The notes beneath the pieces were generated by a model, which saw nothing but the letters and a program-made list of their open reading frames with translations, was not told the DNA's origin and searched no databases. A program made the translations under genes and the position numbers. 19,278 bases of DNA from positions 1-19,278 of the forward strand of contig JAWBON010000021.1 in NCBI GenBank assembly GCA_038826135.1. Direction: 5' to 3'. Shown in pieces: positions 459-15,628 of this stretch (its first letter is position 1; every line of letters begins with the position of its first letter). This stretch comes from Candidatus Odinarchaeota archaeon. Its GTDB lineage: Archaea; Asgardarchaeota; Odinarchaeia; Odinarchaeales; Odinarchaeaceae.

Positions 459-2024
459 ATGGTCGCAGAGATAATCCTAGCCATATGCCCGCTCATACTA
501 CCTTTATTAGCAGCGTTAGTAGGTTACTTACTCTCTTTGATAAGCGATAATGCTAGAAACGCTGGTATAATATTTGTAATTTCAACAGCTTTCATAATAA
601 ACTCTATATTACTTATTCAAGCGAACCTTGGGGCTTTCACAATCGTTGAACTGGGAGCTTTAATAATAAACGAATCAGGGATATTCGTATCCGAACTAGT
701 ATTATTCCTCTCCCTGCTGGTTATAGTCTATTCAATAAGGTATATGTCCGCTGAACGTGATAAAACATTATATTACGTGTTAATATGCATATTCACCGGG
801 ACCATGAACGGATTAATCTTCTCATTCAATATAATAATACTTTACATGTTTATAGAAGCTTCAACAGTTACCAGCGCTATACTAGTCATGTTCGGTAGAA
901 CGAGAAGAGCTAACAGAGCGGCGATAATATATTTAGCTATCAGCATTCTCGGCGGGTTCTTCATCTTAGGCGCTGAGTTCGTTCTCGTCTCAGCTTCAGG
1001 CGTTGAGCTGTTAACAGATCCAGCGATAGCCTTGGTTTCAGCGGATATAAGGCTGATAATATCTGTTTTAATGCTAGTCGGCTTCGGTGTGAAAGCCGGT
1101 ATTATACCATTCGGTTTTATATGGTTACCTAGAGCCCACGCTGAGGCTCCTTCACCTATAAGCGCGCTTCTTAGCGGTGTTCTCGTCCAAGTAGCAGCCT
1201 TCGCGATGATAAGAACAATCGGCGTGGTGGCGTTCGACATACAGGTCGTTTCACTGCTTTTAATAGTCTTCGGAGTGGGGTCGATGTTATCCGGCTCTCT
1301 ATCCGCTCTCTTCGAAGTATACGGGGTTAAACTAGCGAAATACAGGTTTAACAGAGATATAAAAAGAGTATTAGCCTACTCCACTATAAGCGAGATCGGG
1401 TTCATAATAATGTTAGGCGGTATTCAAGGCTTATTCGGCCCGTTCGCACCGCCTGTGGAGTTTTCAGCTCTCACAGCCATGCTACTCCACTTATACAATC
1501 ACGGCTTCTCTAAAGCACTGCTCTTCTTAGCTGTGGGTGTGATAATGTATTATCTTCATATAAGAGATATAGGCCAGATGGGCGGTTTATCAAAAAGTAT
1601 GCCGATCACCACAACCTCATTCCTTATAGGAGCTTTAAGCCTGGGGATGATTCCACCGTTATTCGGTTACAAGACGATATTTGAATTAGCTTTTGAAATA
1701 CCTTTACCCCTGACGGTGAACATATTTCTCATAGTATCTATAATTACGATAGGGTTGACGTTAGCATTCTATATCTCCGCCTTCACATTTATATTCATAA
1801 AACCCAGACCGAAAGGAGCACTAGGCGATATAAGCGTTGACGCCGCTAAAGTGACGCCGCCCCCAAGGGTGAAATTATATCAGCCGCTGCCTATGATTTT
1901 CCCCGTGGTCTTTATACTACTCGTGGTAATAGCTTTAGGCATACTCTTCTTAAGCGGAATATTAACCGCTTCAACTCTGAATCTTGAACATATAGCGTTC
2001 ACAGTAATAAACCCGGGATTGTGA
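459..2024 (+). CDS. Antiporter-like (MrpD/MbhH/NuoM-N family) membrane subunit of hydrogenase module 1
   Basis: About 14 hydrophobic segments; motifs FIEAST (E133), GFGVKAG (K212), WLPRAHAEAPSPISALLSG, DIKRVLAYSTISEIG, HLYNHGFSKALLFL, DIGQMGGL. SD AGGAGGAGG upstream. Confidence 0.93.
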   Translation: MVAEIILAICPLILPLLAALVGYLLSLISDNARNAGIIFVISTAFIINSILLIQANLGAFTIVELGALIINESGIFVSELVLFLSLLVIVYSIRYMSAERDKTLYYVLICIFTGTMNGLIFSFNIIILYMFIEASTVTSAILVMFGRTRRANRAAIIYLAISILGGFFILGAEFVLVSASGVELLTDPAIALVSADIRLIISVLMLVGFGVKAGIIPFGFIWLPRAHAEAPSPISALLSGVLVQVAAFAMIRTIGVVAFDIQVVSLLLIVFGVGSMLSGSLSALFEVYGVKLAKYRFNRDIKRVLAYSTISEIGFIIMLGGIQGLFGPFAPPVEFSALTAMLLHLYNHGFSKALLFLAVGVIMYYLHIRDIGQMGGLSKSMPITTTSFLIGALSLGMIPPLFGYKTIFELAFEIPLPLTVNIFLIVSIITIGLTLAFYISAFTFIFIKPRPKGALGDISVDAAKVTPPPRVKLYQPLPMIFPVVFILLVVIALGILFLSGILTASTLNLEHIAFTVINPGL

Positions 2025-3778
2025 TTACGATGTCAGATAATATAGTAAGTACTGTAAAAAGTGTTGAAAAATTTAGTATAATCGACGAGGTTAAACTCTT
2101 CCTGAAAGAGATGCTTAAAGAAAACTATATTGAAGAAACACAGATACAGGATAAAAAATATGTGATAAGAACCACACCTGAATATGTGCGATCTATAGCA
2201 GATTACATGATTAGAAGAGATGCTAGACTTGTTCATTTAACCGTATCCGATGAAGGTGTAAACGGTTTCGAGGTTCAATACCATTACGGATTCGACCACC
2301 TTGAAAAAAACACTCATTTCATTATAAAGGTAAGAGTTCCCCGTGAAAGCCCTGAAATCCCATCAATATCACCTATTACATGGCAGGCTTCATGGGCTGA
2401 AAGGGAGATGATGGATTTACTGGGGGTGAAGTTCACCGGACACCCGGATCCACGCCATCTCTTCCTACCATACGAGTGGCCTGAAGAACCTGAAAGCGAG
2501 AGAGTTGACGGATTCAGCTTATACACTAAAAGAGATAAGTCAGCTTATTATATAAGAAAGGAACTCGGCAAATGGGTCCCCCTAGCTTTAAGCCCGGCTG
2601 ACGCTAAACTCACACTTCTACCAATAGGACCTTATCACCCTATGTTTATAGAGTCCGAGTACTTCCGTGTAAGAGTTGAAGGGGATGAAATAGTCGAGGT
2701 GGATATGAAGACAGGTTTCAACCACCGTGGAGTGATGCGGCTTGCTGAGCAGAGACATTACGCTCGAATACCATTCTTAGTGGAACGTGTCTGCGGTATC
2801 TGCAGCACAACTCATGCTACAGCTTACTGTAACACTGTTGAAGCCATGCTTAAACTAGATATCCCTGACAGGGCGAAATATATTAGAACAATAATATTAG
2901 AGCTTGAAAGACTCCACAGCCATCTAATATGGTTAGGTGTAGCCGGGGATCTTATAGGTTTCAAAACACTTTTCATGTGGGCTTTAAGAGATAGAGAGCA
3001 TGTGCTCGATCTTTTCGAGAAGTTAACAGGTAACAGAGTTCATCACGACATAGTGTATCTTGGCGGTGTTAGAAAGGATATAAGTGAAGCTCACATCCCG
3101 GAAATACTTCGAAGAATAGACTTTATTGAAGAATCTGTTAAAAAATATATAGATATGGCTTACGATCACCCGGTTGTGAAAGCTAGAACTATGGATGTAG
3201 GATTACTTACACTTACAACAGCTAAAGACGCTGGGGCGGTTGGTCCAACAGCTAGAGGAAGCGACTGGAAAATAGATGCTAGAAGCTCCAACCCTTACGC
3301 TGCTTACGGCCCAGAGTACACAACCTGGGAGGTTATAACAGAACCGGGGGGAGATGTCTGGTCAAGGCTTGTAGTGAGATTAAAAGAAGCTCTTGTCAGT
3401 TGCGATATAATAAGACAGTCAGTTGAGAGAATGAAGAAAACAAGCCCGGATATTAGAGTGAAGCCTCCGCTTCCAGAGGATGGGGTTGAAGCTGCTAATA
3501 AAACAGAGGCTCCGAGAGGGGAATTATACTATTATATAAAGTCGAATGGGACAAGTATCCCTCACACGGTGAGGATAAGAACTCCAAGCTATAGAAATGA
3601 TGCGGTGCTACCGTTCATGTTAAGAGGGCAAACACTATCCGACGCCCCTATAATTATAGGCAGCATAGACCCATGCTTCTCATGCACTGATAGAATGATT
3701 AGAATAGAGGATACTAAAACAAACCAGGTCAGGTTTGAGAGAATAGGCGATATAGCTAGAAAATACAGGAGGGTTTAA
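2021..3778 (+). CDS. Group 4 [NiFe]-hydrogenase large subunit fused to a NuoC-like domain (HycE/HyfG-type); start may be ATG 2030
   Basis: NuoC motif WAEREMMDLLGVKFTGHPDPRHLFLP; GPYHP; L1 ERVCGIC (C258/C261); ELERLHSHL; EAPRGE; L2 DPCFSCTDR (C552/C555) followed by a C-terminal extension. Confidence 0.96.
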   Translation: MITMSDNIVSTVKSVEKFSIIDEVKLFLKEMLKENYIEETQIQDKKYVIRTTPEYVRSIADYMIRRDARLVHLTVSDEGVNGFEVQYHYGFDHLEKNTHFIIKVRVPRESPEIPSISPITWQASWAEREMMDLLGVKFTGHPDPRHLFLPYEWPEEPESERVDGFSLYTKRDKSAYYIRKELGKWVPLALSPADAKLTLLPIGPYHPMFIESEYFRVRVEGDEIVEVDMKTGFNHRGVMRLAEQRHYARIPFLVERVCGICSTTHATAYCNTVEAMLKLDIPDRAKYIRTIILELERLHSHLIWLGVAGDLIGFKTLFMWALRDREHVLDLFEKLTGNRVHHDIVYLGGVRKDISEAHIPEILRRIDFIEESVKKYIDMAYDHPVVKARTMDVGLLTLTTAKDAGAVGPTARGSDWKIDARSSNPYAAYGPEYTTWEVITEPGGDVWSRLVVRLKEALVSCDIIRQSVERMKKTSPDIRVKPPLPEDGVEAANKTEAPRGELYYYIKSNGTSIPHTVRIRTPSYRNDAVLPFMLRGQTLSDAPIIIGSIDPCFSCTDRMIRIEDTKTNQVRFERIGDIARKYRRV

Positions 3779-3779
3779 T

Positions 3780-4898
3780 GTGGCTGTATATTTACCGGTA
3801 TGGCAGATAATAGTTAGCTGTTTTCTACTACCTGTAGCCGCGTTTTTCTTCGGCATACTCTTCCAAAGCCTTATCAGAAAGTTTACAGCCCGCTTCCAAG
3901 GCCGCAGAGGACCCTGGTATATAGTACCTAAATCTTTAAGACCTGTAGTCGGCTCAACCCGTATCATGCAACCCTTCTGGGATATAATGAAATTAATGTA
4001 TAAGCAGACTTTAATACCCTCCACCGCTCAGAGAAAAATATTCATATCAGCCCCATTTGTAGCCTCGATCAGTCTAGTGATCGCCATCTGGTTCATTCCA
4101 GTTATAGGCATATCACCATTCGGACCTTTCGAATTCAGTCTCATAGTCACCTTATATCTTATGCTAATCGTTCCGTTAACGATTGTAGCCAGCGGGGCTG
4201 CAAGCTCCTCACCCTGGGGTGCTTTAGGAAGCTACAGGGAGGTTATACTCACATTAGCTTATGAACTACCATTCATATTCGGTATATTTTCAACAGCAAT
4301 GTTAACAGGTATACTAACCCCTGTGTACGGTACCCTACCCCAACTACCTGGAAGCCTTTCACTAACAGATATTGTAAACTTTCAAGCCCAGCATTCAATA
4401 TCCGTGCTCGGATATAAAATACCAGCCTACTTTTTAATAGTAAACCCGTTCTCAGCGATTGCTATTATAATGAGTTTAATAGGTAAGCTTAAAATAAAGC
4501 CGATGGATATACCTGACGCAGAAGTTGAGGTTATAGCAGGATCATACACAGAGTACACTGGAAAACTGTTAGGTTTCTATGAGATAGCTAAGATACTGTT
4601 ATTATTCGTAAGCTTGACATTATTCATAGACATGTATCTTGGAGGAGCTTTAGTTACAATAAACTATTTCGGCGTTCCATCATTTATATGGAGTGGAATA
4701 GTATTCGGAGTTGAAATGATAATACTAATCTTAATAGTCTCGATTATCAACGCTGCTAATGCACGTTTTAGAATAGATCAAGCTTTCACATGGTATCTTA
4801 AAATACCATTAGTTTTAAGTTTAATCGGCTTAGCCTGGCCTTATATTATGGCGTCAATAGCAGCTGCAGGGGTGAACATAGGTATAAGCATAGTTTAG
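3780..4898 (+). CDS. NuoH/HycD/MbhM/EchB-family membrane anchor subunit (module 1)
   Basis: RKFTARFQGRRGP...QPFWDIMKLMYKQ, AYELP, PMDIPDAEVEVIAGSYTEYTG, NARFRIDQ; about 8 TM segments; GTG start with AGGAGG upstream. Confidence 0.94.
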   Translation: MAVYLPVWQIIVSCFLLPVAAFFFGILFQSLIRKFTARFQGRRGPWYIVPKSLRPVVGSTRIMQPFWDIMKLMYKQTLIPSTAQRKIFISAPFVASISLVIAIWFIPVIGISPFGPFEFSLIVTLYLMLIVPLTIVASGAASSSPWGALGSYREVILTLAYELPFIFGIFSTAMLTGILTPVYGTLPQLPGSLSLTDIVNFQAQHSISVLGYKIPAYFLIVNPFSAIAIIMSLIGKLKIKPMDIPDAEVEVIAGSYTEYTGKLLGFYEIAKILLLFVSLTLFIDMYLGGALVTINYFGVPSFIWSGIVFGVEMIILILIVSIINAANARFRIDQAFTWYLKIPLVLSLIGLAWPYIMASIAAAGVNIGISIV

Positions 4899-4908
4899 GA
4901 GGCTGGTT

Positions 4909-5517
4909 ATGGTTAAAGGTAAAATAAAACTGTTAAAAGAAGCTTTGCGAAGCAGTAAAGACATCCAGACACTAGACTACCCGGGTGGGAATCCTGAGAT
5001 AGATTATTCAGAGCCGAGGTTCGGCAGCGGAGCGAAATACAGTCACGTATGCGAGGGGCTCAGAGGAGCACCTAAATATAGTGAGGATGACTGCTGCGGC
5101 TGTGCTGCATGTGAAAGCGTTTGCACCGCTAATACTATAAAAGCGGAAGATGTTAACGGGAAAAGAATATTTACAATAGACCTTGGCAGATGCGTTTTCT
5201 GCGGCAGATGCGAGGAGGAATGCCCTGAAGATGCTATAAAACTGACTACTAAATTCGAGTTAACATATACAAGCCCAGCTGTTCAAAGCCCTGAAAACAT
5301 CAGGTTTGAAAGAGATCTCATATTATGCGAGAAATGCGGTAATGTTGTAGCTCCTGTAAAACAATATGACATATACTCTGAGAAAGTTGTTAAAAATCTT
5401 GGTGAAGAATGGAGAGAGAAAAGTAAAGAGGATGTTGAAAAAGCTAGAAAACTTTGCAGAGAATGTCGTAGAAAAAATGCTTATACACTTAATTTACATA
5501 CCAGAAAATATTATTAG
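4909..5517 (+). CDS. HycF/NuoI-like 2x[4Fe-4S] subunit with a C-terminal CxxC...CxxC domain (module 1)
   Basis: TLDYP...LRGAP; CCGCAACESVCT and CVFCGRCEEECP; additional CEKC and CREC; SD AGGAGG. Confidence 0.9.
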   Translation: MVKGKIKLLKEALRSSKDIQTLDYPGGNPEIDYSEPRFGSGAKYSHVCEGLRGAPKYSEDDCCGCAACESVCTANTIKAEDVNGKRIFTIDLGRCVFCGRCEEECPEDAIKLTTKFELTYTSPAVQSPENIRFERDLILCEKCGNVVAPVKQYDIYSEKVVKNLGEEWREKSKEDVEKARKLCRECRRKNAYTLNLHTRKYY

Positions 5518-5528
5518 GAGAGTAAAAT

Positions 5529-5972
5529 ATGGGTTTGAAGCAAAAATCAAGATTGTATTCACCTTGGGTTTTCCACGCCCATTGCAGCGGCTGTAATGGT
5601 TGCGGTATTGAAATAGCAGCTGCCTTAAACCCCAGGTATGATCCTGAGAGAGTAGGGGTCACACTGCATAATAATCCCAGGCACGCGGATATAATGTTAG
5701 TTGAAGGCATAGTAGCAAAACAGCATGTACCATTCCTTAAAAGAACCTACGATCAGATGCCTACTCCGAAAGCGGTTGTAGCGATAGGCTCATGCGCGAT
5801 AACCGGTGGCGTATTTAAACCAGACGATGATAAAGGACCCTCATACACTCAAGGCGGACCTGTTGATAAAATAATACCTGTAGATGTTTACGTGCCAGGA
5901 TGTCCACCTAAACCTGAAGCTATAATAGACGGTGTTATAAAAGCAGCTATCATACTATCTAAAAGAGATTAG
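5529..5972 (+). CDS. Group 4 [NiFe]-hydrogenase small subunit (HycG/EchC/MbhJ, NuoB-like), module 1
   Basis: CSGCNGCGIE, NPRHADIMLVEG, VAIGSCAITGG, VDVYVPGCPPKPEAI. Confidence 0.95.
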   Translation: MGLKQKSRLYSPWVFHAHCSGCNGCGIEIAAALNPRYDPERVGVTLHNNPRHADIMLVEGIVAKQHVPFLKRTYDQMPTPKAVVAIGSCAITGGVFKPDDDKGPSYTQGGPVDKIIPVDVYVPGCPPKPEAIIDGVIKAAIILSKRD

Positions 5973-9978: not shown

Positions 9979-9995
9979 GAAAATTTTAAATATAA
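9979..9995 (+). promoter_or_regulatory. Putative BRE/TATA promoter of hydrogenase module 2
   Basis: gaaaattttaaatataa, 35-45 nt upstream of the nuoA-like start and flanked by a 10-bp inverted repeat. Confidence 0.45.
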
Positions 9996-10029: not shown

Positions 10030-10368
10030 ATGATCACCATGTTAGATGTAATATGGGTTCCGATAGCTTTCATAATAATTCTAATAGCGACGGCTGCAAT
10101 CTATGCTTGGGGTAGAAGAGTAGCCCCCCCGTCGAGAAAAAAGGGGGAAGCGCTTGAAACCTACGCGTGCGGTGAGGAACAAACTGATGTTCACACACAT
10201 TTCAGAATAAACTGGTTTTATTACGCAGTATACTTTATGATATTTGATATTATAGCGTTCATACTCACCTTCGGAGCATTCCAACTAGGGATTCTACCAG
10301 CAGTTTACGCGGTAGTACTCTACGGAGCAGTCTCATTAATAGCAATAATAGTTTTATTAAGGGGGTAA
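10030..10368 (+). CDS. NuoA/NdhC-like three-TM membrane subunit (module 2); start may be ATG 10039
   Basis: TM1, loop LETYACGE, then FRINWFYYAVYFMIFDII (NuoA pattern Y...A..F..FD) and TM3. Confidence 0.85.
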   Translation: MITMLDVIWVPIAFIIILIATAAIYAWGRRVAPPSRKKGEALETYACGEEQTDVHTHFRINWFYYAVYFMIFDIIAFILTFGAFQLGILPAVYAVVLYGAVSLIAIIVLLRG

Positions 10369-10373
10369 ATTTT

Positions 10374-10826
10374 ATGAGTAAACTTGTAGATTGGGCGAGG
10401 AGAAGCTCACCTTGGCTTCTACATTTTAATTCAGGCAGCTGCAACGGCTGCGACATAGAAATTCTAGATGCGTTAATGCCCAGATTTGATCTGGAGAGAT
10501 TTGGAGCGCTTCTTAAAGGAAGTCCAAGACACGCAGATGTTTTAGTCTGCACTGGACCTGTTACAAGACAGCAGGCGCCGCGTCTTAGAAGAATATACGA
10601 GCAGATGCCGGATCCTAAATTCGTAATGGTTGTAGGCACATGCGGTTCAACCGGTGGCGTATTCAGGGGATGCTATAATAATGCTGAGGGAATCGATAAC
10701 GTAATACCGGTGGATGTTTATGTTCCAGGCTGCCCTGCAAGACCTGAAGCTATTGAATTAGGAGCTGTTAAACTGTTAGAGAAGCTTAAAAAAGTCCAGC
10801 AGCAGGCTAGAGGTGAAAAGAAATGA
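10374..10826 (+). CDS. Group 4 [NiFe]-hydrogenase small subunit (NuoB-like), module 2
   Basis: WARRSSPW, GSCNGCDIE, SPRHADVLVCTGPVT, EQMPDPKFVMVVGTCGSTGG, VDVYVPGCPARPE. Confidence 0.95.
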   Translation: MSKLVDWARRSSPWLLHFNSGSCNGCDIEILDALMPRFDLERFGALLKGSPRHADVLVCTGPVTRQQAPRLRRIYEQMPDPKFVMVVGTCGSTGGVFRGCYNNAEGIDNVIPVDVYVPGCPARPEAIELGAVKLLEKLKKVQQQARGEKK

Positions 10827-12556
10827 CTGAGTTAACTCAATTACCTAAAACTGAAGAATTAAAAAATGAATATGAGATAGTTGAAGAGTTAAAAACCCTA
10901 CTAGGCAGCGACTTATTAGAATATAAGGTTCCACGCGTTAACCGGGTCTGGATTACCGTCCCTAATGGCAAACACTATAAGGTAGCTGAATATTTATATA
11001 ATAAAATGGGTGTCTGGTTCATAAGCACTGTCACCGGACTTGACTTAAAAGATCACTTTGAAGTATTATTCCACTTCTTAGATATGCAGAGAAAAGTTGA
11101 GATCACTGTGCGAGTACCTGTCTCAAAAGATAAACCTGAATTAGAGTCTCTAACAGATTTTTATCCAGGTGCAAATCTTTACGAGAGAGAAGTCTATGAC
11201 ATGTTTGGCATTGTTTTTAAAGGTCACCCTAATCTTAAAAGACTTCTATTAGCGGAAACATTTCCAAAGGGAGAACATCCTCTACGTAAAGACTGGACAC
11301 CTGATAAATGGGATCCTAAAAAAGTTAAGCTTATTCAAAGACAACCAATCACACCTGAGACTTCAGACGATTATGTACTCCAAGTTGGACCTCAAACCCC
11401 GACATTAAAAGAACCGATGAATTTTGAAGTTATATTAGATGGTGAAATAGTAGTGGACATTATACCGCACATCGAATATAATCATCGAGGTTTAGAGAAA
11501 GCCTTCGAGCAGAGAACATTCATTCAAGGAATTTACTTAGCTGAAAGAGTGTGCGGTATTTGCAGCCAAGCACACACACTACCATACTGTGACGCAGTAG
11601 AACAGTTACTAGGCGTCCAAGTTCCACCGAGAGGAAAATATATTCGTACAATGGTGGCAGAGTTCAACAGAATCCACAGCCATCTTCTCTGGATAGGAGT
11701 GGCATGTCATCTCATAGGCTGGGATACAATGTTCATGTACAGTTGGAGGGATCGAGAAGTAATCTTAGATTTAACAGACCTTGTATGTGGAAGCAGAGTA
11801 ACAGCCGCTATTAACACAATCGGAGGGGTTAGAAGAGACGTAACGGATGATGAGATCCATAAGATAAGAAAAGGCATGGACATATTGGAGAAAAGAACTA
11901 AAACATATAAGAAAATAGTATTTGAAGAAGATACATTATTGAAAAGAGCTGTTGGAGTAGGCTACTTGAACCCATCATACCTTAAGGCTATGAGCGCTGT
12001 AGGGCCTGTAATAAGAGGTTCAGGTGTTAAAACAGATGTAAGATACGATGACCCTCATTTCGGCGCTTACGATGAAATACCATTCAATGTATGCACATCA
12101 GATATGTGTGATATCGCTGGCAGACTACTTGTGAGAGTTGATGAATTAATAGAGTCAGTGAATATGATAAGATATATTTTAGACCACCTGCCAAGCGGTG
12201 AAGTGAGAACTAAGGTTCCTAGAAGAGTACCTGCAGGTGAAGCTGTAAGCCATAATGAGGCTCCAAGAGGGGAAGTATTCTACTATATTAAATCCAACGG
12301 CACAGATAAACCTGAAAGAGTTAAGATTATAACACCTACAATGGCTAATCTTTTACCGATAATAGAGTCATGTAAAGGCCATTACCTAGCAGACTTTGTA
12401 TTAAACTTCGGAAGCATAGACCCTTGCATTGCATGCATGTGTAGGACAACATTTACAGATATATCTAAGAAACAGCCTAAACAATGGGTTTGGACAGATG
12501 AGCAGATGAGACAGTATAGTATAGAATGGTATCAGAATAAAGGATGGAGGAAGTGA
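10823..12556 (+). CDS. Group 4 [NiFe]-hydrogenase large subunit fused to a NuoC-like domain (NuoCD-type), module 2
   Basis: NuoC motif YEREVYDMFGIVFKGHPNLKRLLL...HPLRKD; HRGLEK; L1 ERVCGIC (C244/C247); EFNRIHSHL; EAPRGE; L2 DPCIAC (C535/C538); ATGA overlap with the upstream gene. Confidence 0.95.
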   Translation: MTELTQLPKTEELKNEYEIVEELKTLLGSDLLEYKVPRVNRVWITVPNGKHYKVAEYLYNKMGVWFISTVTGLDLKDHFEVLFHFLDMQRKVEITVRVPVSKDKPELESLTDFYPGANLYEREVYDMFGIVFKGHPNLKRLLLAETFPKGEHPLRKDWTPDKWDPKKVKLIQRQPITPETSDDYVLQVGPQTPTLKEPMNFEVILDGEIVVDIIPHIEYNHRGLEKAFEQRTFIQGIYLAERVCGICSQAHTLPYCDAVEQLLGVQVPPRGKYIRTMVAEFNRIHSHLLWIGVACHLIGWDTMFMYSWRDREVILDLTDLVCGSRVTAAINTIGGVRRDVTDDEIHKIRKGMDILEKRTKTYKKIVFEEDTLLKRAVGVGYLNPSYLKAMSAVGPVIRGSGVKTDVRYDDPHFGAYDEIPFNVCTSDMCDIAGRLLVRVDELIESVNMIRYILDHLPSGEVRTKVPRRVPAGEAVSHNEAPRGEVFYYIKSNGTDKPERVKIITPTMANLLPIIESCKGHYLADFVLNFGSIDPCIACMCRTTFTDISKKQPKQWVWTDEQMRQYSIEWYQNKGWRK

Positions 12557-13608
12557 AAATGGTTTTAGATATCTTTCTAGGAATACTTCAAATAGTCTTA
12601 TTCCCGGGAATAGTATTCTGCATAGGTTTAACATTCCTACTTGAATGGATAGATAGAAAATACTATGCTGATCTTCAGAATAGAATGGGGCCGCTTTACG
12701 TCGGCTGGAAAGGTATACTGCAACCATTCGCAGATTTCATCAAATTAATGGCTAAGGAAGACATTGTACCTGAGGCAGCTGACAGGAAAATGTTCACAGC
12801 AACACCTTTACTCTCAGTAGCTGTTCCTCTGCTAGGCCTTTTATTTATCCCGATTGCAAACATCACGGGCTTACTCAGCTTCCAAGGTGATCTAATCTTT
12901 GTACTGTTCCTAACAACAACGATTGCCATATTAATAATCTTGGCCGGGTATTCTTCAATGAACCAGTACAGTTCAATAGGTGCTGCTAGAGCAGGCTTAC
13001 AGTTAATGGGTTATGAAATACCCTTTACACTCGCAGCTCTCACCCCAGCGATGATAGCTAGAAGCTTGACAATAACAGGAATAGTTCAATACCAGGCTTT
13101 TGCAGGCATGACGCTACTAATATTCCCTGGTATGATAGCGTTCGGTGTATTTATAGCAACTTTACTACCTGAATTAGAGAAGATACCGATGGATATACCG
13201 GAGGCTGAAACCGAGCTTGTAGCAGGATGGCAGACCGAGTTCAGCGGTAAAAAATACGCTTTCTTACGCTTATCAAATAATCTGGAGCTGCTTTTAGGCG
13301 CTGGGCTTGCAGTAACATTATTCCTCGGAGGCCCATATGGTATAGAGAAACTACCTGGATTAACAGCACTGGACTTAGCGATTCAAGGAAACATTATAAT
13401 ATCAGCCGTATGGTATACGGTGTGGTTTTTAATTAAGACAGCGGTCGTTGTGTTAATAGTGACGAATCTGAGAACTTTATTCTCAAGGTACAGAATAGAT
13501 CAGATGGTAAGAGGTGCATGGAAATATTTAACACCACTTATGATAGGGGTTACAATTATAACCCTACTTTTAAGCGCTATAGCGCCCGGTTTATATCCAA
13601 TAATTTAG
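12544..13608 (+). CDS. NuoH-family membrane subunit (module 2); true start likely ATG 12559
   Basis: DRKYYADLQNRMGP..VG.KGILQPFADFIKLMAKE, GAARAGLQLMGYEIP, PMDIPEAETELVAGWQTEFSG, RYRIDQ. Confidence 0.95.
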   Translation: MEEVKMVLDIFLGILQIVLFPGIVFCIGLTFLLEWIDRKYYADLQNRMGPLYVGWKGILQPFADFIKLMAKEDIVPEAADRKMFTATPLLSVAVPLLGLLFIPIANITGLLSFQGDLIFVLFLTTTIAILIILAGYSSMNQYSSIGAARAGLQLMGYEIPFTLAALTPAMIARSLTITGIVQYQAFAGMTLLIFPGMIAFGVFIATLLPELEKIPMDIPEAETELVAGWQTEFSGKKYAFLRLSNNLELLLGAGLAVTLFLGGPYGIEKLPGLTALDLAIQGNIIISAVWYTVWFLIKTAVVVLIVTNLRTLFSRYRIDQMVRGAWKYLTPLMIGVTIITLLLSAIAPGLYPII

Positions 13609-13621
13609 AGGTGAAACATTA

Positions 13622-14002
13622 ATGGTTAGAAAACTAGGTGCGATGGAAACTGAGCTGTTAAAAAATCTTACAAAGAAGAGAGCTACCTTACTGTATCCTT
13701 TTCAAAAACTAGAACTCCCTGACGCATACAGAGGATTATGGAGTTTTGATATTAACAAATGTACAGGATGTGGATTATGCTCCAAAGACTGTCCGAGCGG
13801 TGCAATAGAGCTTAAACCTACAGAGAAAACCAAGGCGGGCAGATACCCGATTAACTATGTTAGCAGATGTTTATTCTGCTCTCAATGCCAGGAAGTCTGC
13901 CCAACAGGCGCTATTAAAATGACACCTGTATATGAGCTTTCAGATTACCGTAAAAAAATAATAGACGCTGAAGCCCCAGACGGATACAGGTATGAGGGTT
14001 AA
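13622..14002 (+). CDS. NuoI-like 2x[4Fe-4S] ferredoxin subunit (module 2)
   Basis: ATLLYP...YRG; CTGCGLCSKDCP and CLFCSQCQEVCP; SD GAGGTGA. Confidence 0.94.
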   Translation: MVRKLGAMETELLKNLTKKRATLLYPFQKLELPDAYRGLWSFDINKCTGCGLCSKDCPSGAIELKPTEKTKAGRYPINYVSRCLFCSQCQEVCPTGAIKMTPVYELSDYRKKIIDAEAPDGYRYEG

Positions 14003-14116
14003 GCTTAAACACCCTATATTTTTATATTTATAGCAATTAAATAAACAAAAACTTAAATTTTTATAGGTGACTCTTCCACTTAGAATTAAGAGGTTTTAAT
14101 ATGAGGGATTATTTTA

Positions 14117-15628
14117 TTGGATAGTTTAAAGTCAGGTAAAAGAATACTGGTTTTCGACACAACATTAAGAGACGGTGAGCAAACCCCCGGCTTAACTCTC
14201 CCGCCGGATAAAAAAATATCTTTAGCTAAAAGCTTAGATGAATTTGGAGTTGACATAATAGAGGCCGGTATGGCAATCACCAGTAAAGGTGAATCAGAGG
14301 CTATCAGGGAAATAGCTAAACTAGGTTTAAAAGCGAAAATATATGATGGATGCAGGTTGAATATAAAAGAAATAGAGCTCGCTTTAAAACTCGATGTTCA
14401 TGGTGTTCAAATAATTGTACCGACAAGTGAACTCCACCAGAGAGTGAAGCTTGGGAAAACACGTCAGGAGATAGATGAGCTTCTTACCGAAGCGGTTACA
14501 TATGCTAAAGATCATGGATTAGAGGTCGGTGTTTCAGCTGAAGATGCTTCTAGAACAGAGAACGATTACCTATCAGAGTTGGCTAAGAAAATCGAGGGAT
14601 TAAAAGGCGACCGCTTCTGCTATTGCGACACTGTTGGAATTCTAACCCCTGATTCAGCGTATAAAAACATAGGTGAAATTAGAAAAGCAACGAAGCTGCA
14701 AATAGGCATACATTGTCATGATGATTTCGGATTAGCCGCAGCGAACACGATATTCGCCCTCAAAGCAGGTGCTGATGAGTTCCACAGTACTATAAACGGG
14801 CTTGGAGAGAGAGCTGGCAACGCCGCTACAGAGGAGGTTGTGATGGCTTTAAAACAATTATACGGTGTGGAATTAAACCTGAAATATAATCGGCTTTTCT
14901 CACTTTCAAGAGAGGTGTCTAATTTAACATTGATACCGGTTCAACCGAATAAAGCAATAATTGGAGCGAACGCGTTCACACACGAGTCTGGAATTCACAC
15001 AGACGGTATGATGAAAGACACTAGAATGTACGAGCCATTCGACCCTGAGATTATAGGACGGAAGAGGAAATATGTTATAGGAAAACATTCAGGTAAGAGC
15101 ATAATAAAAAACACGCTTAAAGAATTAGGTATAGAATTAGCTGAAGATCAGCTGCTAATATTAGTTGATAAACTTAAAACTCTAGCCGATAAAGACAAGC
15201 TCGTCACCGAAGCGGATATAGTGGCATTAGCATATGATATTATAGGGTCACCTCGAACTGAACTGGTTAAATTAGATGAGTTAACAGTTGTAACCGGAAA
15301 CAAGATCACACCGTTTGCAAGCGTGCACATATACGCTAATAACCAGAAGTATATGGCTTCTGGGACAGGTGTAGGGCCTGTTGACGCCGCTATAAACGCT
15401 ATTAAAAACGCTACGAACATGTTCACCGATATAAAACTTGAAAATTACGAGGTTAAATCTATAACCGGAGGCACAAATGCGTTAGTAGACGTGGCGGTTA
15501 CCCTTAAGAAGGGGGAACTTGAAAGAAAGGGTAGAGGAGTAAGCGAGGATATAATCGCCGCCAGCGTGTTCGCTTATTTATCTGCAGTCAACCAAATACT
15601 TCTACTACCCGGTGAAGCTGAGAATTGA
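14117..15628 (+). CDS. cimA: (R)-citramalate synthase (LeuA/CimA family)
   Basis: DTTLRDGEQTPG, AITSKGE, HCHDDFG, GLGERAGN, HESGIH; regulatory domain KLDELTVVTGNKITP and GVGPVDAA. These match archaeal CimA as I recall it better than LeuA, but LeuA cannot be excluded. TTG start. Confidence 0.8.
   Translation: MDSLKSGKRILVFDTTLRDGEQTPGLTLPPDKKISLAKSLDEFGVDIIEAGMAITSKGESEAIREIAKLGLKAKIYDGCRLNIKEIELALKLDVHGVQIIVPTSELHQRVKLGKTRQEIDELLTEAVTYAKDHGLEVGVSAEDASRTENDYLSELAKKIEGLKGDRFCYCDTVGILTPDSAYKNIGEIRKATKLQIGIHCHDDFGLAAANTIFALKAGADEFHSTINGLGERAGNAATEEVVMALKQLYGVELNLKYNRLFSLSREVSNLTLIPVQPNKAIIGANAFTHESGIHTDGMMKDTRMYEPFDPEIIGRKRKYVIGKHSGKSIIKNTLKELGIELAEDQLLILVDKLKTLADKDKLVTEADIVALAYDIIGSPRTELVKLDELTVVTGNKITPFASVHIYANNQKYMASGTGVGPVDAAINAIKNATNMFTDIKLENYEVKSITGGTNALVDVAVTLKKGELERKGRGVSEDIIAASVFAYLSAVNQILLLPGEAEN

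Follow-up and report, generated by a model that had tools for sequence, protein, structure and literature searches.

The window, which is the entire short contig of 19,278 nucleotides from a Candidatus Odinarchaeota archaeon, contains five adjoining open reading frames on the plus strand at positions 10030–14002. These are arranged in the order A-B-CD-H-I: a nuoA-like gene, a small-subunit gene, a fused C+D gene, a nuoH-like gene and a nuoI-like gene. Families were assigned with Pfam and NCBIfam profiles and, along with the reading frames, they confirm the order given in the original prediction. The first gene (10030–10368) encodes a NuoA/ND3-like membrane subunit of 112 aa (PF00507, E 1.9e-8) with three hydrophobic segments and, as had been noticed, a YACG loop. 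Here, the full loop motif is YACGEE, and Y45, C47 and G48 are invariant among 25 family members. Its closest PDB sequence matches are MbhI (6cfw_I, the top match) and NdhC. The statement that Mbh and related hydrogenases generally lack a full NuoA was thus imprecise for Mbh, as MbhI is both the best match and a described structural counterpart of Nqo7/NuoA (Yu et al. 2021, PMC8165549).

The second gene (10374–10826; 150 aa, PF01058, E 2.4e-31) encodes a NuoB-like hydrogenase small subunit with the motifs SCNGCD, GTCGSTGG and GCPARP. Residues C23, C26, C90 and C120 align with C63, C64, C129 and C158 of E. coli NuoB, the first pair being CxxC rather than CC, and the subunit is predicted to bear one [4Fe-4S] cluster with CxxC...C...C ligands. 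This is followed by NuoC fused to a [NiFe] large subunit homologous to NuoD (10823–12556; 577 aa, PF00329, PF00346 and PF00374). Its motifs RVCGICSQAH (L1), APRGE and DPCIACMCR (L2) are intact, as is the CNGC of the small subunit, in agreement with the original prediction. A 36-aa tail of the type cut off by a maturation protease lies C-terminal to L2. The four NiFe cysteines, the histidine context of L1 and this tail are conserved across six aligned Odinarchaeia sequences. In Odinarchaeia, L2 reads DPCIAC-M/T-CR, with one cysteine more than the family consensus DPCxxCxDR. HypD and a HycI-type protease were found in the genome; the two other NiFe enzymes encoded there could also account for them.

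The fourth gene (12544–13608; 354 aa, PF00146, E 1.5e-82) encodes a NuoH/ND1-like membrane anchor. Its PDB matches are NdhA at 167 bits, Nqo8 and NuoH at 129 bits and MbhM at only 85 bits, and by sequence it is clearly of the complex I type. The last gene (13622–14002; 126 aa) encodes a NuoI-like 2x[4Fe-4S] ferredoxin-type subunit with two 4Fe-4S motifs that match Fer4 families, and it scores under the cut-offs of the NuoI, HycF and HyfH subfamily models. It is probably the docking site for ferredoxin and the point of electron entry. No additional electron-input gene is present downstream of it, and no NuoE/F/G-type gene was found beside this cluster or beside the J-K-L-M-N cluster described below.

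Signals read from the sequence flank the five genes. An A/T-rich BRE/TATA-like element at 9980–9994 on the plus strand, 36–50 nt upstream of the nuoA-like start, is the putative archaeal promoter of the operon, the element being generic and non-specific. After the nuoI stop codon, an oligo-T tract on the same strand (about 14016–14024) is the probable end of the transcription unit. The operon ends where originally described: beyond the T tract lie another TATA-like element and then an HMGL/LeuA-family gene at 14117.

The original prediction also held that antiporter genes are missing. This is true of positions 10030–14002 and does not hold for the window, where an antiporter-like gene at 459–2024 belongs to a second hydrogenase operon, or for the genome. 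A stand-alone J1-J2-K-L-M-N cluster is present on another contig of the same MAG (C1, 5941–12015), with no Q-module alongside and no MrpE/F/G-type partners; J is present as two genes. It is the only such cluster in the genome, which supports the suggestion that the arm is encoded elsewhere. A generic BRE/TATA-like element comparable to that of the five-gene operon lies upstream of nuoJ1. The NuoA, J1, J2 and K types are each single-copy in the genome, with A in the window and J and K on C1, and every one of the eleven subunit types either has one copy or can be assigned without ambiguity. The L subunit is 42% identical to E. coli NuoL, retains E/K/H/H/K/K and ends in a tail of TM15, a long lateral helix and TM16. 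Among known structures, it best matches chain L of respiratory complex I and the NdhF subunit of photosynthetic NDH-1.

The position of this cluster relative to the window was established from a closed genome of the same genus, whose large subunit is 91% identical. There, the two contigs are collinear neighbours, and the left end of the window faces the J-K-L-M-N cluster. The start of nuoA is at 1088926 on the minus strand and that of nuoJ1 at 1105884 on the plus strand, leaving 16,958 bp between them. An HdrB-linked hydrogenase operon sits between the two clusters. In all, the genome encodes two other group-4 hydrogenases, one Mbh-like and the other Hyc-like/HdrB-linked. Each has its own antiporter-like subunits, and neither head has a NuoA-type gene.

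The A-B-CD-H-I order is present in all seven Odinarchaeia genomes searched, and a separate L orthologue was found in each of the five relatives searched with NuoL. In the second Odinarchaeia family, the head and the arm are on different contigs. Outside Odinarchaeia, in most of the 80 related loci with enough flanking sequence, J/K and antiporter-like genes share an operon with the NiFe large subunit or lie in a divergent operon next to it, and an A-like gene is usual. The order is A-B-CD-H-I-J-K-L-M-N in Bathyarchaeia, while in many bacterial phyla antiporter-like genes are followed by J-K-(A)-B-C-D-H-I. The one-cluster order of Fpo and Nuo is not found in Odinarchaeia, which have two divergent units 17 kb apart. 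Twenty further Asgard loci show three layouts: one operon, same-strand tandem clusters that are adjacent or a few kb apart, and adjacent divergent pairs separated by 0.06–4.3 kb. The layout in Odin amounts to the last of these, stretched over a longer distance. As other Asgard members show these intermediates, from one operon to adjacent divergent pairs, we treat the split as a variation in layout and not in kind.

Relatives of the large subunit occur in Asgard archaea, Bathyarchaeia, Thermoplasmata, Methanoregula and more than 10 bacterial phyla, and their NiFe motifs are retained: L1 is kept in 80/80 and L2 in 79/80, the exception being a truncated ORF. In the tree, the Odin protein lies inside a 62-row clade of Ni-retaining sequences with complex I architecture (SH-aLRT 94), which contains Bathyarchaeia operons, including the B26-2 contig, as well as Asgard operons. 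This clade stands apart from the Ech-like, Mbh-like, Hyc/Hyf and NuoD/FpoD groups. The sister of the Odin sequences is formed by two closed 2.8-Mb Asgard genomes and isolate LC30. All 18 NuoD/FpoD-type reference sequences are without NiFe motifs and form a clade of their own.

A place near the complex I/Fpo/Mbs branch had been proposed for the hydrogenase. In favor of this are the type of the H subunit and the fact that a topology uniting the hydrogenase clade with NuoD/FpoD is not rejected. On the other side, the PDB matches of the large subunit are led by HycE (313 bits), followed by MbhL (242) and Nqo4 (224), and by raw similarity HycE and MbhL are closer to the catalytic subunit than NuoD is, with MbsL the most distant. 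As judged from these comparisons, nearness to complex I/Fpo is compatible with the data, not proven. As the catalytic subunit scores closer to HycE and MbhL, the term “complex-I-like” applies less to the active-site subunit than to the architecture and the membrane subunits.

What the sequences show is the gene content and motifs, the complementarity of the single-copy genes, the synteny among relatives and the position in the tree. We consider it likely that the five genes code for half of a group-4 [NiFe] hydrogenase with eleven subunits and the shape of complex I (the Hfo or “complex-I-like” type), with its arm encoded approximately 17 kb away. That the two halves assemble physically, that ferredoxin is the partner, which way the reaction runs and which ion is pumped are all inferred. 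Here, B, the fused C-D and I would form a head resembling the Q-module, and A and H would provide its membrane foot. The remainder of the enzyme would comprise a J1-J2-K connector and three antiporter-like subunits, that is, L with its long lateral helix, M and N, made in Odinarchaeia from the second, divergently oriented transcription unit. Electrons from reduced ferredoxin, produced for example by 2-oxoacid:ferredoxin oxidoreductases, would enter at the two clusters of I and pass via the single small-subunit cluster to the NiFe site, where protons would be reduced to H2. Coupling would be as in complex I, with the A loop, H, J and K linking this reaction to translocation of H+ or Na+ by L, M and N. 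In reverse, H2 could drive ferredoxin reduction paid for by the ion gradient. The separate transcription units, the roughly 17 kb between them and the different hydrogenase operon in that interval speak against assembly of the two halves, as do the different contigs on which they lie in the second Odinarchaeia family.

The five genes could instead encode a minimal, self-sufficient hydrogenase that either does not pump or moves ions through the H/A foot only, with J-K-L-M-N an unrelated entity such as a stand-alone Mrp-like transporter. Such an enzyme would fit a transcription unit with its own promoter-like and terminator-like signals, and an arm that lies 17 kb away or, in the second Odinarchaeia family, on other contigs. 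It is very unlikely, as among the relatives examined J and K almost always accompany a NuoA-type subunit, and orthologous enzymes elsewhere are encoded in one operon. In addition, the J-K-L-M-N cluster has neither MrpE/F/G-type partners nor a head of its own, and the head and arm sets are single-copy and exactly complementary. No characterised group-4 hydrogenase (Ech, FHL, MBH and Coo) is known to lack an antiporter-like subunit, which also counts against a minimal enzyme.

Since the head and the arm are separate transcription units, the head might be made with or without the arm. That the cell does so, or lends the arm to another of its three heads, is very unlikely; if true, this would give the cell a natural, modular means of switching between hydrogen metabolism with and without pumping, and would show in a living organism how modules were put together to make complex I. 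The broader proposal that J-K-L-M-N docks to more than one of the three heads, or only under some conditions, giving pumping and non-pumping forms, is highly improbable. It draws on the separate encoding of the arm, the HdrB-linked operon between arm and head and the varied module arrangements among Asgard genomes, and is opposed by the other two heads having antiporter-like subunits and no NuoA-type gene, and by relatives in which the arm is linked specifically to the NuoA-containing head. It is just as improbable that the NiFe ligands are kept while another acceptor, such as sulfur, quinone or a phenazine-like carrier, is reduced, as in MBS, Fpo and complex I. The complex-I-type membrane subunits and the atypical L2 with its extra cysteine would suit this, and no family member has been characterised biochemically (PMC7886697). 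Yet the Ni/Fe cysteines, L1 context and protease-type tail are conserved in the six Odinarchaeia sequences and in 79/80 relatives, whereas the acceptor-switched NuoD and FpoD of the reference set have lost the NiFe motifs. The HypD and HycI-type protease also argue against another acceptor, though the two other NiFe enzymes could account for both.

With the two-half hydrogenase as the preferred reading, a thermophilic Asgard archaeon with a 1.3–1.4 Mb genome has retained an enzyme of complex I shape with all eleven subunits and a hydrogenase active site, which lends support to the published proposal that such hydrogenases gave rise to complex I. The split operon also provides a practical warning: where a lineage has a split operon, studies limited to adjacent genes will underestimate the membrane arm, and in Odinarchaeia would miss three antiporter-like subunits. 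The novelty at first suggested does not stand, as the large subunit falls within a group of the same architecture that has been described before (Hfo/4g, Loh et al. 2021; Asgard complex-I-like, 2024). Most likely, this is neither a new kind of enzyme nor a minimal pump-less hydrogenase, but a type known from genome-based descriptions of 2021 and 2024.

Among the closest described systems is Hfo of Bathy-6 Bathyarchaeia, a [NiFe] hydrogenase that resembles Fpo and has 11 subunits. It is HydDB subgroup 4g (a label taken here from the paper only), and clusters related to it occur in Methanomethylicus and Pyrodictium (Loh, Herve & Brune 2021, PMC7886697). Both NiFe motifs, homologues of all eleven core subunits and the clade placement assign the Odin enzyme to this Hfo or complex-I-like type; like Hfo, it has no NuoEFG/FpoFO module. 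The three Bathyarchaeia loci examined also have a fused C and D; their order is (A)-B-CD-H-I-J-K-L-M-N, identity is 44–48% and the sequences fall in the same Ni-retaining clade. In contrast to Hfo, the Odin gene set is divided, with 17 kb between A-B-CD-H-I and J1-J2-K-L-M-N and the two on opposite strands; J is split, and L2 has an extra cysteine.

Within the same phylum, complex-I-like group 4 [NiFe] hydrogenases have been described with the same proposed mechanism, ferredoxin to H2 with ion translocation, and the published tree already places Freyarchaeia and Atabeyarchaeia large subunits beside those of Odinarchaeia (Valentin-Alvarado et al. 2024, PMC11291895). Asgard subgroups 4j–4q were defined by Appler et al. 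2024 (bioRxiv 10.1101/2024.07.04.601786), and the label that applies here is probably 4q. In that study, which modelled only adjacent ORFs, Odinarchaeia complexes are described as MBH-like with an Hdr domain and Heimdallarchaeia ones as having shortened arms; the Odin enzyme differs in that its L-M-N arm is complete, includes a lateral helix and is encoded away from the head genes.

Complex I and Fpo (NuoA-N, FpoA-N) share with the Odin enzyme the eleven core subunit types and the order A-B-C-D-H-I then J-K-L-M-N, and its H, L and A loop are of the complex I type. Unlike theirs, its D retains the NiFe site and is placed outside the NuoD/FpoD clade, its B has CxxC rather than tandem CC and an input module for NADH or F420 is absent. 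Identity with respiratory complex I or Fpo was rejected on the NiFe cysteines and the CNGC of the small subunit. The MBH of Pyrococcus furiosus (6CFW), fed by ferredoxin, and the E. coli formate hydrogenlyase (7Z0S), fed by formate dehydrogenase, are likewise built on [NiFe] group-4 catalytic modules; HycE and MbhL are the top matches of the catalytic subunit and MbhI is the nearest solved relative of A. An Ech/FHL/MBH-type (group 4a–e) identity was also rejected, as the operon has no antiporter-like gene and the complementary arm is of the J-K-L-M-N type. In contrast to MBH and FHL, the Odin enzyme has no MrpE/F/G-type (MbhA-C, F) genes, carries three antiporter-like subunits where they have one or two, and has an L-type lateral helix; its H subunit is far closer to NuoH/NdhA than to MbhM.

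The complex-I-ordered hydrogenase genes of the window are five closely spaced, same-strand ORFs (10030–14002). The window is the entire contig C21, which belongs to a MAG of 1.26 Mb that comprises 105 contigs and is 93% complete. The product of the first, 112 aa long, belongs to the NuoA family (PF00507); it contains three hydrophobic helices as well as a YACGEE loop. The remaining four are a 150-aa NuoB-type small subunit, whose four cluster cysteines have the hydrogenase spacing CNGC...C...C; a 577-aa protein in which a NuoC domain is fused to a NuoD/[NiFe] large-subunit domain that has RVCGICSQAH, APRGE and, ahead of a 36-residue tail, DPCIACMCR; a 354-aa protein assigned to the NuoH family; and a 126-aa NuoI-type protein with 2x[4Fe-4S]. 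Between nuoI and the gene for an HMGL/LeuA-family synthase lie an oligo-T tract and a new TATA-like element. Since the five ORFs, the motifs and the boundary are all present, the original prediction of this gene order, and of an operon that stops after nuoI, is right in every sequence detail. The sole in-frame start of the synthase gene is a TTG at 14117 (in 14003–14130), with the ATG at 14102 being out of frame. An Rfam scan of the window gave no match. Genes for HypD and a HycI-type endopeptidase are present elsewhere in the genome.

A search of the MAG for antiporter-like genes found three in succession on a second contig, C1. Immediately upstream, NuoJ is represented by two genes, one for its N-terminal half (85 aa) and one for a 101-aa protein aligning to its C-terminal half, and a NuoK gene comes next. 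Together these form a J1-J2-K-L-M-N cluster (C1 5941–12015), which has no head subunit genes beside it. The family profiles for NuoA, J1, J2 and K have one match each in the genome; that of NuoA is on C21, the other three on C1. It had been proposed that the membrane arm is encoded elsewhere or shared, or that the enzyme does not pump. This proposal is partly supported: the cluster on C1 bears out the first option, and an enzyme lacking antiporters or pumping is unlikely. Divergent from nuoJ1, on the minus strand, is a gene for an Arf/Ras-family small GTPase (C1 5150–5740), a neighbor that is also kept in a closed congeneric genome.

That closed genome measures 1.418 Mb and has a large subunit 91% identical to that of the window; C21 and C1 both align with it collinearly. 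Here, the C21 genes span 1079834–1098861 and those of C1 follow after a gap of approximately 1.1 kb. As nuoA starts at 1088926 on the minus strand and nuoJ1 at 1105884 on the plus strand, the two units are divergent and 16,958 bp apart. The stretch between them contains additional genes, among them those of another hydrogenase operon. The possibility that the window is misassembled and that the missing subunits are adjacent does not apply, because the window is a whole contig and the closed relative places the arm 17 kb away. A-B-CD-H-I is present in all seven Odinarchaeia genomes searched, from two families, and a separate NuoL orthologue in all five relatives searched with NuoL. In the second family, head and NuoL orthologue are on different contigs, the 78-kb contig that bears the head having no L orthologue.

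Whether this arm goes with this head can be judged from the two other group-4 hydrogenases that the genome holds. One is the operon between the two units (window 459–5972), which encodes an antiporter-like protein, a fused CD, H, a ferredoxin-type protein and a small subunit, and whose large subunit is closest to HycE. The other, on C49/C73, has two antiporter-like subunits and a large subunit closest to MbhL. Neither has a NuoA-type gene, as judged by the NuoA-family profile across the whole genome. As both have membrane subunits of their own and no NuoA-type gene, J-K-L-M-N is left for the one head without an arm. Co-folding of NuoA with J1, J2 and K, run without controls, gave a score of 0.01 against a mark of 0.32, a value read as neither for nor against an interaction. 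A motif shared upstream of both units, GAAA(A/G)TTTT..TAAATA, was considered as a sign of co-regulation; this argument was dropped because the motif is only the generic archaeal BRE/TATA consensus. Two sequencing runs labeled metatranscriptomic, and flagged as probably DNA, yielded short, low-depth contigs scattered across the window, the five genes included. The operon between the units also contains a 99-aa ORF, its ferredoxin-type protein is HycF-like, and it runs past the left end of the contig (158–5972).

The subunits differ in which known enzymes they resemble. The catalytic subunit scores highest with E. coli HycE (313 bits), followed by MbhL (242), Nqo4/NuoCD (about 223) and MbsL (161). 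For the H subunit the scores are 167 with NdhA, 129 with Nqo8 and NuoH, and 85 with MbhM, and by this measure of sequence similarity it is clearly of the complex-I type. The L subunit shares 42% identity with E. coli NuoL across the core and retains the TM5 Glu, TM7 Lys, TM8 His/His/Lys and TM12 Lys. Its C-terminal end comprises TM15, a helix of ~60 residues (of low confidence in the monomer model) and TM16. In structure comparison, the model agrees over its full length with respiratory complex I chain L and with NdhF from photosynthetic NDH-1, both ranking above MrpA. The L subunit therefore looks like NuoL. In the A subunit, the YACGE loop varies little or not at all among 25 family members and occupies the position of the TM1–2 loop of NuoA/ND3. 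The solved relative nearest to A in sequence is MbhI, which has been described as the MBH counterpart of Nqo7 (Yu et al. 2021, PMC8165549); the earlier assumption that Mbh lacks a NuoA counterpart was consequently too strong.

Relatives were compared using the best 80 loci with a large-subunit relative from 185,579 species genomes (39–63% identity outside the genus and about 40–55% outside Odinarchaeia). The first NiFe-binding motif, RxCGxCxxxH, is kept in 80/80 of these; the second, DPCxxCxxR/H, and the C-terminal tail are present in all but one truncated ORF. The form of this motif is DPCxxCx(D/S)R in 74 of the 75 more distant relatives; the other one, a truncated ORF, does not contain it. 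All large subunits from Odinarchaeia have an extra cysteine in the second motif, DPCIAC(M/T)CR (window 12419–12445; also L018 and L020–L023).

A quick maximum-likelihood tree was built from 94 D-domain sequences, among them FpoD above the NCBIfam cut-off, NuoD from archaea and from E. coli, HycE and HyfG of E. coli, Ech-like sequences and the paralogues encoded in this genome. The Odinarchaeia large subunits fall within a clade of 62 sequences (SH-aLRT 94), all of which, except two incomplete ORFs, have the NiFe motifs. Most clade loci whose neighborhoods were examined and had enough flank encode complex-I-type membrane subunits next to the large subunit, with genes of the J/K and antiporter-like kinds and usually one of the A-like kind. 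The sister of the Odinarchaeia sequences (support 95) is formed by a pair of closed 2.8-Mb Asgard genomes and isolate LC30. The NuoD/FpoD sequences, which lack the Ni ligands, group apart in a clade of 18 (support 99). The tree does not fix the order of the backbone joining the Ni-retaining clade, NuoD/FpoD and the Ech-like, Mbh-like and cluster-1 sequences. Forcing the Ni-retaining clade together with NuoD/FpoD was not rejected (p-AU 0.76) and gave a likelihood above that of the free, quick search. As the groups for the AU test were defined after seeing the tree, and the tree search was quick, this counts as compatible with this hydrogenase type being the nearest relative of complex I and is not proof of sisterhood. 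The predicted placement near the complex I/Fpo branch is compatible with these data to that extent.

In most of the best 80 loci with sufficient flank, J, K and antiporter-like genes share the operon, usually accompanied by one for an A-like protein; this comparison, too, favors the arm as the partner of the head. Bathyarchaeia have A-B-CD-H-I-J-K-L-M-N, and in many bacterial phyla J-K-(A)-B-C-D-H-I comes after three genes of the antiporter-like kind (L055–L128). Bacterial MAGs with the NiFe-retaining version come from more than 10 phyla, including Omnitrophota, Planctomycetota, Bacillota, Spirochaetota, Elusimicrobiota, Myxococcota, Lentisphaerota, Acidobacteriota, Actinomycetota, Bacteroidota and others. 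The complex-I-like type is much wider spread than the archaeal literature consulted here suggests. Methanoregula and some Thermoplasmata have J-K-N-N-(A)-B-C-D-H-I. In Methanoregula (L089, L091, L092, L094 and L096) this is preceded, on the same strand, by a second group-4 module, H-B-D-I; an Ech-like head thus sits directly before a hydrogenase of the complex-I-like type that has two antiporter-like subunits.

The two modules also occur in 20 additional Asgard loci, as one operon, as a same-strand tandem (adjacent or 3.8 kb apart) or as adjacent divergent pairs 0.06–4.3 kb apart. Because these range from a single operon to adjacent divergent pairs, the Odinarchaeia layout is the stretched end of a series. 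In the two closed genomes of the sister group (L135 and L136, from G017 and G027), J1-J2-K-L-M-N is ~1.6 kb away on the opposite strand, and no H or I gene was detected within 10 kb after A-B-C-D. These may be encoded elsewhere, which would be another way of splitting the same complex. At another Asgard locus (L151; G011:C1, about 548.8–551 kb), the D gene reads through one TAA and the called ORF is without the first NiFe motif; the gene could be broken, its stop codon could be recoded, or it could contain a small intron of a type noted in other Asgard genomes.

Head and arm are predicted to assemble into one complex, the most likely function of which would be ferredoxin:H+ oxidoreduction coupled to ion translocation. 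Electrons would enter at the I subunit, as no other input module is encoded and genes for pyruvate:ferredoxin oxidoreductase are nearby, 4.5 kb downstream of the head. They would then pass via the small-subunit cluster to the NiFe site, with the energy reaching L, M and N by way of the A loop, H, J and K. We somewhat favor H2 evolution in a fermenter over H2-driven ferredoxin reduction, the direction proposed for Bathyarchaeia.

On the features used to test membership, filing under Ech/FHL/MBH and filing under complex I/Fpo were both rejected. Instead, the enzyme belongs to a kind already described. This includes Hfo, an Fpo-like enzyme of 11 subunits from Bathyarchaeia, in which the D subunit retains both NiFe motifs (HydDB subgroup 4g) and which was put forward as the nearest connection between complex I and the energy-converting hydrogenases (Loh, Herve and Brune 2021, PMC7886697). 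It also includes group-4 hydrogenases of the complex-I-like type in Freyarchaeia and Atabeyarchaeia (Valentin-Alvarado et al. 2024, PMC11291895). Appler et al. (2024 preprint, bioRxiv 10.1101/2024.07.04.601786) named the Asgard subgroups 4j–4q and described those complexes that come from Odinarchaeia as MBH-like and as having an Hdr domain; by their own statement, only adjacent ORFs were modeled and subunits may be missed. In contrast to that description, the Odinarchaeia enzyme has three antiporter-like subunits and a lateral helix. What is new here is that the complex is complete yet encoded in two distant units, an arrangement that an adjacency-based survey would miss.
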